Below, piece by piece: positions 497 to 46,308 of a stretch of 46,776 bases of DNA. The notes beneath the pieces were generated by a model, which saw only the letters and a list, made by a program, of their open reading frames with translations, made no database searches and was not told where the DNA came from. Made by a program: the position numbers and the translations under genes. How positions within the stretch are numbered: position 1 is the stretch's first letter; each line of letters begins with the position of its first letter. Origin of the DNA: a virus (lineage: Duplodnaviria; Caudoviricetes); IMG/VR virus record IMGVR_UViG_3300025600_000026, positions 1 through 46,776 of that record; one strand, given 5' to 3'.

Positions 497-569
497 GCCG
501 GAATAACTCAGTTGGTAGAGTGTCTGATTTGTATTCAGAATGTCACGGGTTCGATTCCTGTTTCCGGCT
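497..569 (+). tRNA. tRNA-Thr(TGT)
   Basis: Full cloverleaf: GCCGGAA/TTCCGGC; ACTC-AGTTGGTA-GAGT; TCTGA-TTTGTAT-TCAGA; ACGGG-TTCGATT-CCTGT. CCA is not encoded. Confidence 0.93.
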
Positions 570-582
570 CAAAATTTAAGTT

Positions 583-8102: not shown

Positions 8103-8962
8103 GCAGATCAGTTTCAGATATTCAACAGCAAGTAGTTACTCAATTAGTGGCTAATCTTGCAACGATAGGGATAACAGTAGACCCGAATCAATGGAGTAAG
8201 CGGAACATGTTGAGAATGATTTGCTTTACTTTTGCCGTTTGTGCTGCATACATCGAACAGTTAATGGATGCTTTGAAATTGTCAATTGAAACAACTGCCA
8301 GCCAATCAGCCGCAGCTTCGTCCCTTTGGATTCAATCTCAAATGTTTGCTTTTCAATTTTCGCTGTTAGATCCCCAAATATTGCAATTAATAAACACCAT
8401 TCCGCAATATCCATTTATTGACACTAAATTAAGGATAATTACAGCGTGTTCAGTAACGTCAACGGCGCCAAATGTTGTCACTATTAAGGTTGCCAAAGAA
8501 AGTCCATTTGTGGCATTGACAGATATTGAGAAAGCAGCGGCTCAGGGATATATTAATCAGAAAGGAACAGCCGGAATAAATTACACGGTCGAATCAAAGA
8601 ACTCTGACAAGATTTACATTAATGCAAATATCTATTATCAAGGTCAATATTCAGTAGTAATCAAAACGGATGTAATCGCGACCATTAATTCATTTCTGCA
8701 AAACCTTTCGATAACCAATTTTAATGGCAGTCTTAAAATGACCGATTTAGAAGCGGTAATAAGAAACGTCGAAGGTGTGAATGATGTTGTATTACTAAAC
8801 GTGAGAGGACGTGAAGATACTGCACCATTTAGCGCAGGGATTGATTTAATTTTGAATCAAACAACCATTGCCAGGCTTTGGAACTCGGTTGCAGGATACG
8901 TAAGCGAAGAAACAACCACGCTAAAAACATTTAATGATTCATTGAATTTTATACCTGAATAA
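8099..8962 (+). CDS. baseplate wedge protein (gpJ-like)
   Basis: IKVAK..YINQKGTAGI and LEAVIRNVEGVNDV C-terminal motifs. Confidence 0.72.
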   Translation: MSRSVSDIQQQVVTQLVANLATIGITVDPNQWSKRNMLRMICFTFAVCAAYIEQLMDALKLSIETTASQSAAASSLWIQSQMFAFQFSLLDPQILQLINTIPQYPFIDTKLRIITACSVTSTAPNVVTIKVAKESPFVALTDIEKAAAQGYINQKGTAGINYTVESKNSDKIYINANIYYQGQYSVVIKTDVIATINSFLQNLSITNFNGSLKMTDLEAVIRNVEGVNDVVLLNVRGREDTAPFSAGIDLILNQTTIARLWNSVAGYVSEETTTLKTFNDSLNFIPE

Positions 8963-8986
8963 TACTAATTTTGAAATAAAAACGAT

Positions 8987-10876: not shown

Positions 10877-11166
10877 TGAAAGAACCGAAACCGATTGACA
10901 TTTACAATTATGAGAGTGTAGGCAACCTTGCAGTAGATATGTGCGTAGCATGTATTCAACACGAAATGAAGTTCAATAAACCAATCAAGGCTGTCATCCT
11001 AAATAAGGCTAAATATGAAGTCTTTCAAAGATGGGTAGCGAAAGAGTGGGGCGAAGAACATCTTTATAAGCAATTCTTTATCGAAGGCGTTGAAATTCGC
11101 AAAGAAACGATTATATTTGGCAGCGAATTAATGATCGAATATTACAAACAATCCGAATTAGTATGA
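10876..11166 (+). CDS. hypothetical protein
   Basis: TAATG coupling to the upstream gene. Confidence 0.65.
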   Translation: MKEPKPIDIYNYESVGNLAVDMCVACIQHEMKFNKPIKAVILNKAKYEVFQRWVAKEWGEEHLYKQFFIEGVEIRKETIIFGSELMIEYYKQSELV

Positions 11167-11342
11167 TTCCGAAAGAACGTAGATTTGTAGGTTATTTGCA
11201 GCCGTTACAGGCTCGATTAGTTAAGAATATGTCCGAACAATCAGGACAATCTGCCAGCTCTATTATAGCCGAAGCCGTAAAAGACAAGTTCAATAATATG
11301 CCTGTTTCAGAACGTGAGCGCATTCTTGGACTTAAAAAATAG
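11163..11342 (+). CDS. ribbon-helix-helix (CopG-like) DNA-binding protein, not in the ORF track
   Basis: 59 aa MIPKERRFVGYLQPLQARLVKNMSEQSGQSASSIIAEAVKDKF...; beta-helix-G-x-S-x-S-helix pattern; ATGA overlap. Confidence 0.65.
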   Translation: MIPKERRFVGYLQPLQARLVKNMSEQSGQSASSIIAEAVKDKFNNMPVSERERILGLKK

Positions 11343-11368
11343 TTTTCTTTCCGTTCGTTTTTTAGTTT

Positions 11369-11394
11369 AAGCCTTGCAGAAATGTGAGGCTTTT
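11369..11394 (+). terminator. intrinsic terminator
   Basis: AAGCCTTGCA-GAAA-TGTGAGGCTT followed by TT. Confidence 0.75.
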
Positions 11395-11446
11395 ACATGT
11401 TTAAAAACATGTTTTGTCAGATACTCAATTATTGATATTATATTTG
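11394..11446 (+). promoter_or_regulatory. tandem operator plus -7 box
   Basis: TACATGTT-TAAA-AACATGTT, 25 nt gap, TATATTTG. Confidence 0.7.
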
Positions 11447-20676: not shown

Positions 20677-21218
20677 GCGATAGAAGCATAAATGAAGCAA
20701 TTAATAAAATGGTCGGTACACATAAGGTCGATCAGGTAAGCTATTGCAATGCCGAAGTTATTAGCGTTAATATTCAAGCCAGAACATGCGACTGTATAGT
20801 AATTGATGGGCAAACAGAATACGATCTTCCGAACGTTCGATTAATGGCCGTTATTGACGATGGGATATTATTTGAGCCGGTTATCGGGTCTACTGTTAAA
20901 GTGATATTTTCGCGATTAGTTGAGCCGTTTGTTTGTCAGTATTCAGAGCTTGAAAATATAACCATTGACGCTGTAACGACAATTAAATTCAATGACGGTT
21001 CGTTTGGTGGGCTATTGAAGATTAAAGAAACGGTTGATAAATTAAACGCTCTGGAAAAGGATTTAAATAACCTTAAAAATGCTTTTAATTCATGGGTAAT
21101 TGTCCCATCAGACGGAGGATTAGCTTTAAAAACAATCACCTCCGCATGGTCTGGACAATCCTTGACTAAAACAAAAATTAACGATCTTGAAAATAAAAAA
21201 GTAAAACATGGGAATTAG
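20673..21218 (+). CDS. baseplate spike/assembly protein (gpV-like)
   Basis: OB-fold-like N-terminus (VRL..PVIGSTV), FNDGSFGGL, ENKKVKHG. Confidence 0.72.
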   Translation: MSDRSINEAINKMVGTHKVDQVSYCNAEVISVNIQARTCDCIVIDGQTEYDLPNVRLMAVIDDGILFEPVIGSTVKVIFSRLVEPFVCQYSELENITIDAVTTIKFNDGSFGGLLKIKETVDKLNALEKDLNNLKNAFNSWVIVPSDGGLALKTITSAWSGQSLTKTKINDLENKKVKHGN

Positions 21219-27547: not shown

Positions 27548-27596
27548 ACCATGTTAAAATAAATCTACTATCTTTGATAAACTAAAAACGAAAACG

Positions 27597-30445: not shown

Positions 30446-30476
30446 TTTAGTATTGATTTAATGATTACATTTGAAA

Positions 30477-30540
30477 ATCGTTTTTAAAGTAAGTTAGTTA
30501 GTAATTCAGGCCCGCAGGATTCCCAGTCTTGCGGGTTTTT
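30477..30540 (+). ncRNA. candidate trans-acting antisense sRNA
   Basis: TACATTTG box at 30466-30473; 5' ATCGTTTTTAAAGT; terminator 30508-30540; no ORF. Confidence 0.6.
30508..30540 (+). terminator. intrinsic terminator at the late/early boundary
   Basis: GGCCCGCAGGAT-TCCCA-GTCTTGCGGGTT followed by TTT. Confidence 0.85.
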
Positions 30541-30563: not shown

Positions 30564-30643
30564 AACATGTTTTATAACATGTGATCGAAAGTGAAAATAA
30601 ATCACAAATAATTAGGAGTAGTTTAATATAGTCGCTATATTTG
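30564..30643 (+). promoter_or_regulatory. tandem operator and early-region promoter
   Basis: AACATGTT-TTAT-AACATGTG; TATATTTG at 30636-30643. Confidence 0.65.
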
Positions 30644-30676
30644 TCGTATTGAATTACACATTTAAAAAACGACAAA

Positions 30677-31518: not shown

Positions 31519-31695
31519 ATGAGCTATTCAAAAATCAAACTTGACGGCACAACTTCCGAAAAAGCAGGACGTAAGCCACTTCCAAAAGGTGAAAAGAAAT
31601 TGAAATTTACTATGTACGAATACCCTAAAATCATCACTTTAAACGGTGGGATGTATAAGATGAAAGAAACAATGTTAAACAGTTTAAAACGATAA
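31519..31695 (+). CDS. small basic DNA-binding protein
   Basis: AGRKPLP AT-hook-like motif. Confidence 0.55.
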   Translation: MSYSKIKLDGTTSEKAGRKPLPKGEKKLKFTMYEYPKIITLNGGMYKMKETMLNSLKR

Positions 31696-31774
31696 CCATG
31701 TGGGAAATAATCGTACTTGCCGGAATACTATCAATTTTAATCAGTTCGCTAATTTTACCTAAAAACGACTCAAA

Positions 31775-31978: not shown

Positions 31979-32278
31979 AACATCCGAGGTTTAGTTGAGC
32001 CTCCGATTTGTTATAGTCTGGTTTTCTTAGCCTATCATAGCGATACAGACACCTTTTTTTGTTACATGCCTCCGGTCATACAGGAATTTGATCGGAGGCA
32101 GTCAGAACTTTAAAAACGATATTGAGATGAGCGAAATTAAATGTAGAAAATGCGGAGATGAACCCGATCAGAAAGCGTTAATTTCCGGTAAATGTAGCTG
32201 GTGCGGCTAAGAATTACCCGAAGAAAATGAGTTTGATCAATTTGAAGGATGCGGAATGGATTCAGAACTTTAATTCTA

Positions 32279-32331
32279 AACATGTTTAAAAACATGTTTT
32301 GTAATACCGATTATCATTTAGCTTATCTTTG
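32279..32331 (+). promoter_or_regulatory. tandem operator plus -7 box
   Basis: AACATGTT-TAAA-AACATGTT, 25 nt gap, TATCTTTG. Confidence 0.7.
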
Positions 32332-32357
32332 AAGTACAATTTAAAAACGATACGAAA

Positions 32358-32531: not shown

Positions 32532-32713
32532 AATATGCACGCTACGATTATGATTCGCCAGATGGAATGTACGAACCCGATAACGAACCATCACAGGCAG
32601 ATATGGATGCTGATAAGTGCGATAATGACGAAGATTCAGAATAAATAAATAATTAAAAGATACAAAGTTAGCAATTAATTTTGTATCTTTACTACACTTT
32701 AAAAACGATAAAA

Positions 32714-35921: not shown

Positions 35922-36092
35922 ATGAAAAAACTACTTTTATTCTTATTTTTACTCTCTATTTTATCCTCATGCGTGACAGTTAAGAGATCACATTCAAAAG
36001 TAATGTATGCTAAACGAGCGGCATTTATTAAGTCGCACGGGGAGCCACAAAACGAATTTTTTGATCGGAAATGTCCGAATGTGTTTAGATAA
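35922..36092 (+). CDS. small lipoprotein, not in the ORF track
   Basis: MKKLLLFLFLLSILSS-C lipobox, 56 aa. Confidence 0.65.
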   Translation: MKKLLLFLFLLSILSSCVTVKRSHSKVMYAKRAAFIKSHGEPQNEFFDRKCPNVFR

Positions 36093-36096
36093 TTAC

Positions 36097-36104
36097 TATA
36101 TTTG
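36097..36104 (+). promoter_or_regulatory. -7 promoter box of the tmRNA gene
   Basis: TATATTTG just upstream of the acceptor piece. Confidence 0.7.
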
Positions 36105-36109
36105 TACCT

Positions 36110-36400
36110 TATAATATCCGTTGAAGTTATTTGAAAAGCTGTTAAGACGTGGGTTCGACTCCCACCACCTCCACGCTAATCGCCAATTAGTAACGTTTCT
36201 TCCTATTTTCTTCGATATAAAAGAAACTTGGCTCCGGGGGTGACTGGTTTTGATTAGCAGAAAAGTAGATTAATTGAGGGTATTACAGCCAATAACAGGC
36301 AAAACAATTGAAATGAAAATGGCGGCTTAGAGCTGTACAGATTCAAAATTCAGTAAGCATCAGGTGTAGTTCGTCATCTAAACGTGGCACGACTGAATTT
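36110..36400 (+). ncRNA. ssrA: circularly permuted (two-piece) tmRNA
   Basis: Acceptor piece CTGTTAA-GAC-GTGGG-TTCGACT-CCCAC-CACCTCC-A (to 36173) precedes coding piece GGGGGTG-ACTGGTTTTGA-TTAGCAG (from 36236); G3.U70; ATAACA then tag GKTIEMKMAA* (36298-36330). Confidence 0.88.
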
Positions 36401-36553
36401 ATTTTTAAAATTTGTTTGAATTGTCAAAAAGATTGATTAATATTGTCACGGTTAATACAATTTATTTTAAGAATATTTTTGAGACCGTCGAGATGACAGG
36501 CAGACCGGATGGAAGTTCCGGTTTTAATTTCGTAAAATTTGTAAAAAAATAAC

Positions 36554-40382: not shown

Positions 40383-40460
40383 AAAATGATTAAGCAAGAA
40401 GCCGACCGCATCAAATCAAATAACACATTTTTATTTGATAATTTTTTTGTATCTTTGTAA

Positions 40461-40542
40461 TGCTTTTGGGAGGAAGCGCAAACGAAAATATTTTTAAACT
40501 GCCGTTGTTCCGCGAAATCCTCCCATTTCAAAGATCAGCGGC
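40461..40542 (+). ncRNA. kissing-loop 5' leader C
   Basis: Loops GGGAGG (40468-40473) and CCTCCC (40519-40524); starts 4 nt after TATCTTTG. Confidence 0.7.
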
Positions 40543-40558
40543 TTTTAATTTTATGATT

Positions 40559-41117
40559 ATGAAAACAATTGAATTAACACAAGGAAAGATTGCATTGATT
40601 AACGATGAAGATTTTGAATGGCTTAATCAGTTCAAGTGGTATGCACACAAGGATAGAAATACTTTTTATGCAGTAAGAAACCTCCCCAGAGTTAACGGGA
40701 AACAGACGACCCAGCCAATGCATAAATTCATTATGGGAGACAACCCTTTGGAATTAGATATAGACCACCGTGATGGAGATGGCTGCAATAACCAGAAGTA
40801 ATCTGAGATTTTGCACCAGATCAGAAAAAAAGATGAATCAAAAGCCAAGAGAAAACTGCTCTTCTATCTATAAGGGAGCGCATTGGAATAAACACGCAAA
40901 TAAATGGCGGGCGCGAATATGGACAGATGGCAAACTAATTCATTTAGGGTACTTCGATATTGAGGAAGATGCCGCACGAGCCTATAATGCAGCAGCAAAA
41001 TTAGCCTTTGGAGAGTTTGCTAAATTGAATGCGATCGAAATGATGAAAAGCGGAAATACAATTGAATTTTACGAACAGGTTTTAAAACAGTTAGAAGATG
41101 AAAGTAAAAAGAGTTGA
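40559..41117 (+). pseudogene. frameshifted HNH-AP2 endonuclease
   Basis: NNQK* / SNLRFC split across frames near 40795; paralogs read NNQKSNLR and NNQRGNLR. Confidence 0.8.
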
Positions 41118-42459: not shown

Positions 42460-42480
42460 CAGAATACTAAAAACGATAAA

Positions 42481-44000: not shown

Positions 44001-44024
44001 CGTATAATTTAAAACGATAAGAAA

Positions 44025-44809: not shown

Positions 44810-45003
44810 ACACTTTTTATACATCCCAATCCCGATTTAACGCTAAAATAATCAGGCGATGGGATAAGCGAAAGTTTAAATATCACGCTGGACATCTCAA
44901 TATTTTACGCTATTCTTTTGCAACTTTGAGATTCTGGGCGTGTATTAAGGGAAAGAAGATTAGCAAGGAAAACAGAATAGAACTAACAATGAAATTATTT
45001 TAA
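44806..45003 (+). CDS. basic hypothetical protein
   Basis: ATGA-coupled start at 44806. Confidence 0.45.
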   Translation: MNTFYTSQSRFNAKIIRRWDKRKFKYHAGHLNILRYSFATLRFWACIKGKKISKENRIELTMKLF

Positions 45004-45016
45004 AAACGATAACAAA

Positions 45017-46263: not shown

Positions 46264-46308
46264 CATCATGAAACAGCAAGGAAGCTGGATCTGAAAAAAC
46301 GATAAGCC

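Follow-up and report, generated by a model that had tools for sequence, protein, structure and literature searches.

Our analysis revealed a short unit, at positions 30466-30540 (plus strand) of a phage genome, in which a promoter box is followed by the complement of a tag that stands in front of the start codons of about a dozen genes of the same phage. This unit is real, conserved and non-random. Judging by its sequence, we consider it fairly probable that it encodes a small RNA (sRNA) similar to FopS and GibS, which would act as a throttle or timer by blocking translation from those genes of the phage itself that carry the tag and are probably early.

The window, by which we mean the whole stretch of DNA analysed, is an entire virus record of 46,776 bases, classed as linear and 93% complete. 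Nearly all of its genes are carried by the plus strand (gene calls were made with a simple ORF picker, which dropped ORFs of fewer than 30 codons and retained some spurious ones on the minus strand). Genes for terminase, portal, head and contractile tail extend to about 25 kb and are followed by lysis genes up to 30445; small genes, a YqaJ exonuclease, an SSB, a primase-like gene and HNH genes lie 3' of the lysis genes. The host is likely a member of the Bacteroidota, as suggested by the capsid relatives, the absence of AGGAG and GGAGG, the A-rich starts and the TAnnTTTG-type box. Among the capsid matches in GenBank phages, 28 of 34 are named after an organism, and all of these are phages of Bacteroides, Cellulophaga or Tenacibaculum. 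AGGAG or GGAGG occurs in none of the 89 window start regions, and an A is present at position -12 in 73% and at position -13 in 61% of the window start regions.

The unit begins with the -7 promoter box TACATTTG (30466-30473), which fits the consensus TAnnTTTG of sigma-ABfr, the primary sigma factor of Bacteroidota, as given in excerpts of PMC7366714. As this motif occurs about 50 times on the plus strand of the window, the box alone is weak evidence. The predicted RNA start lies near 30477, where a 14-nt 5' seed begins (ATCGTTTTTAAAGT, 30477-30490), separated by 3 nt from the end of the box at 30473. The first 10 nt of this seed are invariant, and the seed is predicted to be unpaired. A G/U-rich linker with a conserved GTTAG follows (30491-30508), which can lengthen the predicted pairing at some sites; tracts like this linker also precede other terminators in these phages. 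The unit is closed by an intrinsic terminator (30509-30540, with the hairpin at 30509-30537 and then a T tract) that is common to the unit and to the upstream lysis genes. The 65-nt strand of the unit folds at -19.4 kcal/mol (z = -4.17), and none of 200 shuffles folded equally well. Box, seed, linker and terminator of this approximately 64-nt unit were thus located as claimed in the preliminary description, and there is no ATG-started ORF inside 30466-30540. A standard promoter and terminator scan, based on the enterobacterial consensus, missed the terminator. The unit displays a trait of trans-encoded sRNAs, namely a conserved and accessible seed complementary to several initiation regions elsewhere.

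Palindromes of the sequence AACATGTT are present in the window at 11395/11407, 30565/30577, 32280/32292, 41787, 42408, 43949 and 46212. They are often paired 12 nt apart or followed by ACAGCT, and they lie 28-71 nt before -7 boxes. G000-G003 carry 7-10 copies against 1-2 expected, and G006, G013, G019 and G022 carry 1-2 copies. These palindromes probably serve as operators for an early-arm protein, for which the gene 31519-31695 (93-97% conserved, without a Pfam match) is a candidate. They are associated with the early promoters at 30565, 32280, 41787, 42408, 43949 and 46212 and are missing from the promoter of the 30466-30540 unit, which may thus escape whatever protein acts at these boxes.

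Six loci were found via the upstream spanin-like protein, and all six carry the box, ATCGTTTTTA, GTTAG and the terminator; they represent the form identical to that of the window plus three other variants. Two further variants, L152 and the G004-G008 group, were obtained from pattern scans, the latter with a complete unit in 11 of 15 pattern matches. Phages of the G004-G008 group have only the terminase (32-38%) in common with the window. The box, the 10-nt seed and the terminator are kept in all six variants. The box is present in 6/6, its nn positions vary and the spacer to the seed measures 3-4 nt; the 10-nt seed is invariant while the box interior, the spacer, the linker and the hairpin all vary. 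The stem of G001 shows a C-G to U-A change, G002 and G003 have a different hairpin, and the -33 element is not conserved among the variants. An automatic consensus fold of five variants was poorly aligned (two-sided change in 5/10 pairs, several pairs broken), so that the hairpin comparison rests on pairwise reading.

Searches beyond these loci produced few additional candidates. Scanning viral contigs for box plus seed gave seven cases with a terminator among the 120 matches listed, all of them known variants, and a loose scan (TTTG plus seed) gave no case with both box and terminator among the 120 matches listed. In metagenomes, 7 of 27 pattern matches passed the terminator filter, corresponding to six family members and one doubtful case. 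None of the eight pattern matches in bacterial genomes had a terminator and no exact host copy was thus found. No match to the unit was detected among GenBank phages. Of the terminase relatives of G004 with enough upstream DNA, 49 of 62 are without a boxed, terminated unit.

The preliminary description had listed 12 plus-strand sites complementary to the seed, and we recovered all of them with their coordinates and match lengths, each ending 0-6 nt before an ATG; two of these ATGs (31698 and 32127) open ORFs of fewer than 30 codons. We also performed the pairing ranking over the phage start regions that it had proposed; the ranks given in brackets below, out of 91 start regions, include opening costs and are partly circular because the sites were picked by complementarity. 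The best site (rank 1) is a 14/14 match at 32696-32709, before ATG 32714 of the first gene of a unit with the YqaJ exonuclease and SSB, so that the recombination unit is indeed among the tagged genes. A second 14/14 match (32107-32120, rank 2) lies at the end of a structured leader, before ATG 32127 of a 27-codon Cys-rich ORF. Tags of 12 nt precede ATG 45017 (44999-45010, rank 3), whose orthologues in G001-G003 are without the tag, and ATG 32358 (32340-32351, rank 6), the latter tag standing behind a box at 32324. Tags of 10 nt precede ATG 8987 (8977-8986, rank 4), the start of a structural-arm gene with its own TAnnTTTG box at 8966, and ATG 42481 of a YopX-like gene (42468-42477, rank 8). The 9-nt tags are those before ATG 31775 (31760-31768, rank 5), ATG 27597 (27583-27591, rank 10; behind a box at 27569 and 5' of the lysis genes) and ATG 46309 (46295-46303, rank 14). 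Finally, weak 8-nt tags precede ATG 44025 (44011-44018, rank 24), ATG 30677 of the first gene past the unit (30665-30672, rank 28; behind a box at 30636) and ATG 31698 of a 26-codon hydrophobic ORF (31686-31693, rank 32; kept in G002).

The leader in front of ORF 32127 (31979-32126, plus strand) is conserved and structured, with -42.9 kcal/mol over 157 nt. The ORF itself has two CxxC motifs, and leader-like sequence in G002 and G003 precedes other genes.

The tags are clearly enriched at starts. Matches to the 14-mer with at most two mismatches number 8 in the window against 1.82 expected (0/100 shuffles). AAAACGA or AAACGAT occurs in 11/90 first-ATG start regions against 0.85 expected from a column shuffle preserving the A-rich profile (0/5000 shuffles), and AAAACGA ranks first among the 7-mers of the window start regions. 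Of the plus-strand complements that reach 10 nt or more, 11 in number, seven have their end in the zone 0-10 nt ahead of a start, to which 2.1% of the strand belongs (binomial p = 6e-10, using a start list that includes two small ORFs added by hand); the remaining four lie away from starts, at 21124, 35198, 42630 and 46753. The arrangement AAAACGAT-N0-8-ATG is found 214 times per Mb in the window versus 8, 13 and 26 times per Mb in three Bacteroidota genomes. Given this far higher density, the arrangement is not the general host start signal, although it overlaps with it.

The A run of the tag covers position -12 in 12/12 sites and position -13 in 10/12. The shared A-rich initiation element which the seed had been said to cover is therefore present at all 12 sites. 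An A at these positions promotes initiation in F. johnsoniae, where mutation lowers reporter output by 30-90%, according to the consulted portion of PMC6847099. Tags precede 8/43 genes of the early arm and 3/47 of the late arm; judged by position alone, this bias does not reach significance (p = 0.11), but two of the late-arm tagged genes (8987 and 27597) have their own -7 box. The tagged genes, which mostly lie behind host-sigma boxes, are probably early genes.

A second anti-tag tract, TCGTTTTT, followed by a terminator, lies at 11354-11397 (plus strand) in the 3' UTR of gene 11163-11342 and was found only in the window. This plus-strand gene, located inside the structural arm, encodes a ribbon-helix-helix-like protein (Atlas scores 0.93-0.94) with homologues in G014, G019, G020 and G022. 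The ribbon-helix-helix-like genes of G019, G020 and G022 have a G/U-rich 3' UTR before their terminator.

With opening costs included, the predicted pairing energies of the 12 sites range from -14.7 to -4.7 kcal/mol; five sites lie between -12.5 and -14.7 kcal/mol and three between -4.7 and -5.5 kcal/mol. The duplexes are A/U-rich, and the seed is predicted to be unpaired in 5/5 folded variants with an ATCG seed. At -9 kcal/mol, the window seed reaches 6/94 starts, and as many are reached by 1/200 shuffled seeds; at -11 kcal/mol it reaches three starts, and as many are reached by 0/200. For the five ATCG seeds, same-composition shuffles attain the observed count in 0-6 of 200 trials. Taken together, the modelled energies and shuffled-seed counts lend credibility to five or six strong targets, whereas sites of 8 nt are doubtful as targets without a chaperone. 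Given this spread of energies, the statement of the preliminary description that one sRNA silences a phage-wide regulon is too strong.

Tag and unit occur together across phages. Tagged genes make up 7-13% of the genes in G000 (11/94), G001 (9/101), G002 (6/81), G003 (10/79) and G006 (4/49), and 0-3 genes (0-3.2%) in 16 relatives without the boxed unit. In reading this comparison, G000-G003 count as one lineage since one early arm is common to all of them, and the capsid-only controls have early genes that are non-homologous to those of the window. TAAAAACGAT is absent from 16/20 capsid relatives. G004, G005, G007 and G008 (56-66% complete) contain the unit, with only 1-2 tagged genes among 34-51. 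In G006, the two top start-region 7-mers (AACTAAA and AAACGAT) are both covered by the phage's own seed; its tags sit on a small-gene operon, and two 14-nt sites match its own seed extension.

We propose that an RNA of approximately 64 nt is made from the host-sigma promoter, with a start near 30477. The 5' end of this RNA, being unpaired, would bind the AAAACGA(T) tag in front of about a dozen start codons and would probably block translation of the genes concerned. From published Bacteroidota biology, the tag should overlap the A residues at -12/-13 and -6, which promote initiation where no Shine-Dalgarno sequence is used; pairing would therefore hide the ribosome landing site, as with GibS and FopS. 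The stable RNA would build up after infection, and late lysis transcripts ending at the same terminator may top up the supply. The tagged genes would then be throttled in the order of their pairing strength, with the recombination unit first. The purpose of such a system would be that of a lytic-cycle timer and not of a dormancy switch. As the seeds cross-match among G000-G003, the exclusion of tag-bearing relatives would follow as a by-product.

Alternatively, the active molecule could be the 3' trailer of longer mRNAs (those of the lysis unit and of the unit ending at 11397), which would fold back on its own first start tag or be cut out late, the -7 box being secondary. The terminator of 30466-30540 indeed also closes the lysis genes. 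The structural arm has two strong intergenic terminators, and an anti-tag trailer is present at each of them, downstream of a boxed, tagged gene (8987 and 27597). Moreover, G001 too has a tagged, boxed gene before its lysis genes, and G037 combines a tag with a box-less anti-tag in front of a terminator. We nevertheless find a trailer unlikely, given that the box stands 3-4 nt before the seed in 6/6 variants and that the best sites (14/14) belong to other, downstream units. Furthermore, the lysis unit of G002 is without the CGA tag, and G001-G003 show one anti-tag terminator only. In the G004-G008 group, the unit is located before the terminase genes and behind another terminator, which argues that it is not merely an mRNA tail.

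The pairing which we propose for a timer could also serve dormancy or superinfection immunity, with early genes held down in a carrier state and incoming relatives bearing the same tag silenced, like the C4 RNA of P1/P7. The seeds of G001-G006 match 7-12 window start regions, so that cross-silencing among relatives is predicted, and tags differ between lineages, as in immunity groups. In the same direction, the promoter of the unit lacks the AACATGTT boxes that precede early promoters and, in agreement with the preliminary description, which had seen no obvious CI repressor, no HTH_3 protein was found in the window (93% complete); G002 has one weak and G013 three good HTH_3 matches. However, neither a tyrosine integrase nor a resolvase was found in G000, G001, G002 (complete, with terminal repeats) or G013, which leads us to favour a lytic timer over dormancy, and the replication gene 37699 is without a tag. 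We thus regard this role as quite unlikely. The lysis/dormancy switch suggested in the preliminary description gains no support, as searches of the window for an integrase, a resolvase or an HTH_3 repressor were negative; since the window is linear and 93% complete, an integrase or repressor gene may be missing from it.

It is very unlikely that the tag is a protein-binding site, either as an operator in the DNA or as the target of a phage protein that binds mRNA, with the inverted copy behind box 30466 as one more operator and no RNA pairing. Several tags do lie 3-21 nt behind a -7 box, and a phage protein could explain a lineage-specific motif. On the other hand, the distance to the ATG is tight (0-6 nt), whereas the distance to a box varies or there is no box, and the only minus-strand match of at least 10 nt in the window is the 30466-30540 unit itself. 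The inverted copy in G013 is located in a hairpin loop, and an operator gives no reason for a promoter driving 64 nt into a terminator. We give just as little credence to an origin without any regulation, in which a single promoter-leader cassette, used repeatedly, would have given rise to all the tags, and the inverted copy would be a relic start, or a by-product of G/U-rich trailers facing A/C-rich starts. It is true that different genes of G000-G003 follow identical leaders and that these phages often have G/U-rich trailers. False positives exist as well: the G013 -39040 candidate, which we rejected, is the reverse strand of a real gene start, and the anti-tag of L416 is a tag together with a 5-codon ORF, in reverse. 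Against such an origin stand the invariance of the 10-nt seed among changing surroundings, the low counts reached by shuffled seeds, the reappearance of this pair of seed and tag in an unrelated group of phages and the presence of a different pair in G013. The minus-strand start motif of a lost gene, named in the preliminary description as a refuting case, is ruled out for 30466-30540, since the minus-strand ATG at 30470 exists in only 1/6 variants and the box in all six.

The preferred reading, an sRNA acting on the phage's own tagged genes, finds parallels with other tags. When 22 genomes were searched blindly for over-represented words in their start regions, G013 (83.5 kb, capsid 78% identical) proved to carry the tag AAAACTTCGCA before nine ATG and one GTG starts (9/144 starts against 0.02 expected). 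The same genome contains a boxed, terminated two-hairpin unit (G013:68197-68275, plus strand; locus L405 near 10001) whose first loop is the complement of AAAACTTCGCA; no homologue of this RNA was found among eight pattern matches. G037 has AAACCCCAAAC start tags and their complement before a -25 kcal/mol terminator at 1542 (plus strand), without a box. G036 has TAAACCC tags (7/44 against 0.24 expected) and a boxed unit with a partial complement at 8677 (plus strand). G015 and G016 show enriched start motifs, and no credible anti-tag unit was found in them. The seeds of G019 -3705 and G019 +13327 were rejected as unspecific, as they match the start regions of most genomes alike.

As for covariation of seed and start motif, a check named in the preliminary description, G006 has sites for its own seed extension and G013 its own pair of tag and RNA, but the co-change predicted for L416-L422 failed. 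In this sister group (terminase 87-88% identical to that of G004), the syntenic rightward unit has a different 5' end, the AAACGAT tags remain, and the predicted new tag matching the changed seed was not found at the starts. The rightward unit matches the weakly enriched word AAAACCA (4/57 against 0.33 expected), and the divergent unit has ATCGTTTT 13 nt behind an imperfect box and before its terminator. Just 5' of the terminase genes, L414 (9380-9560) and L416 (9380-9570) each have two small terminated units placed back to back; the G004 group and its sister group differ in which of the two, rightward or leftward, holds the anti-tag.

It is tempting to suggest that Bacteroidota phages carry a private barcode at their early-gene starts and a matching anti-barcode RNA, together forming a phage-wide, RNA-only master switch which would replace a protein repressor, time the early-to-late change and define immunity groups. 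The barcodes would differ by lineage (AAAACGAT in the window, AAAACTTCGCA in G013 and AAACCCCAAAC in G037). We advance this generalization tentatively and would not yet bet on it.

Among known systems, the closest are GibS and FopS of Bacteroides thetaiotaomicron, which have an unpaired 5' seed and repress by pairing at initiation regions (excerpts of PMC7366714 and PMC11697453). FopS combines a canonical sigma-ABfr promoter with a seed directly followed by an intrinsic terminator (excerpts of PMC11697453). Similarly, the window unit has a sigma-ABfr-type box, an unpaired 5' stretch and then an intrinsic terminator, and its pairing is predicted close to the start codons of genes, again in a phylum that does without Shine-Dalgarno sequences. 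For FopS and GibS themselves, which are characterized by binding to RbpB, repression has been demonstrated. The FopS model is stated to be Rfam-deposited; the Rfam 15 scan (to E = 1) gave no match at 30466-30540. FopS and GibS have 12-15 paralogous copies per genome, whereas the window has one unit plus the short partial tract at 11354. Finally, the window unit is phage-encoded, and its predicted targets are the phage's own tagged genes instead of host metabolic mRNAs.

Other close systems are the C4 antisense RNA of P1/P7, whose immunity acts at the antirepressor operon, and the CI RNA of P4. The window unit is predicted to resemble C4 of P1/P7, as portrayed in the consulted part of PMC5320573, in being a short phage RNA that acts in trans near ribosome-binding sites, with lineage-specific pairs of seed and target. 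However, the 5' end of C4 is generated by RNase P, its fold comprises three stem-loops, the loops do the pairing, and its role is in immunity (same part of PMC5320573), whereas the window unit has one terminator hairpin, a 5' seed, about 12 scattered targets, no sign of lysogeny and no Rfam match. Other phage-encoded RNAs, namely sar, OOP, aQ, 24B_1, VpdS, PreS and STnc6030, tune phage development, as the window RNA is predicted to do, but unlike it they are cis-antisense to one gene or Hfq-bound and acting on host or few phage mRNAs (excerpts of PMC12197685). The term 'Bacteroid' has no match in this review, and the excerpts do not describe a tag common to many phage starts. No phage RNA aimed at a shared start tag was found in the part of the literature that was searched. 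On the strength of its sequence, the window unit would seem, with somewhat better than even chances, to encode a so far undescribed sRNA whose target tag has been installed by the phage itself.

The phage RNAs known so far are directed either at a single operon or at genes of the host. If our reading is true, a single RNA governing a whole class of phage genes via a self-placed tag would add a new level to the timing of phage development, in a phylum that lacks both Shine-Dalgarno initiation and Hfq. Pairs of seed and tag would supply compact, mutually independent translational switches for the engineering of Bacteroidota, and the tag could be a means to recognize early genes in uncultured phages.

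We made several further observations on the window. The early arm and the lysis genes are common to G001, G002 and the window (up to 99% identity), and G001 and G002 have no match to the window capsid and most tail genes; 13 other phages have head genes in common with the window and little of the early arm. At the sequence level, module exchange between the window and its relatives appears clear. A tRNA-Thr(TGT) gene is located at 497-570 (plus strand), directly 5' of the small terminase gene. The window also encodes a permuted, two-piece tmRNA at 36084-36421 (plus strand; RF04321 match at 36115-36330, 62 bits versus a cut-off of 47 bits) with the tag peptide GKTIEMKMAA and a TATATTTG box in front at 36097; the start of this locus is also present in L123. 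Lastly, a second boxed, terminated structured unit lies at 40450-40550 (plus strand), overlaps the start of ORF 40460-40801 and is retained, with altered stems, by G002 and G003. Pairing between the GGGAG and CTCCC tracts of this unit could produce an alternative, attenuator-like fold.
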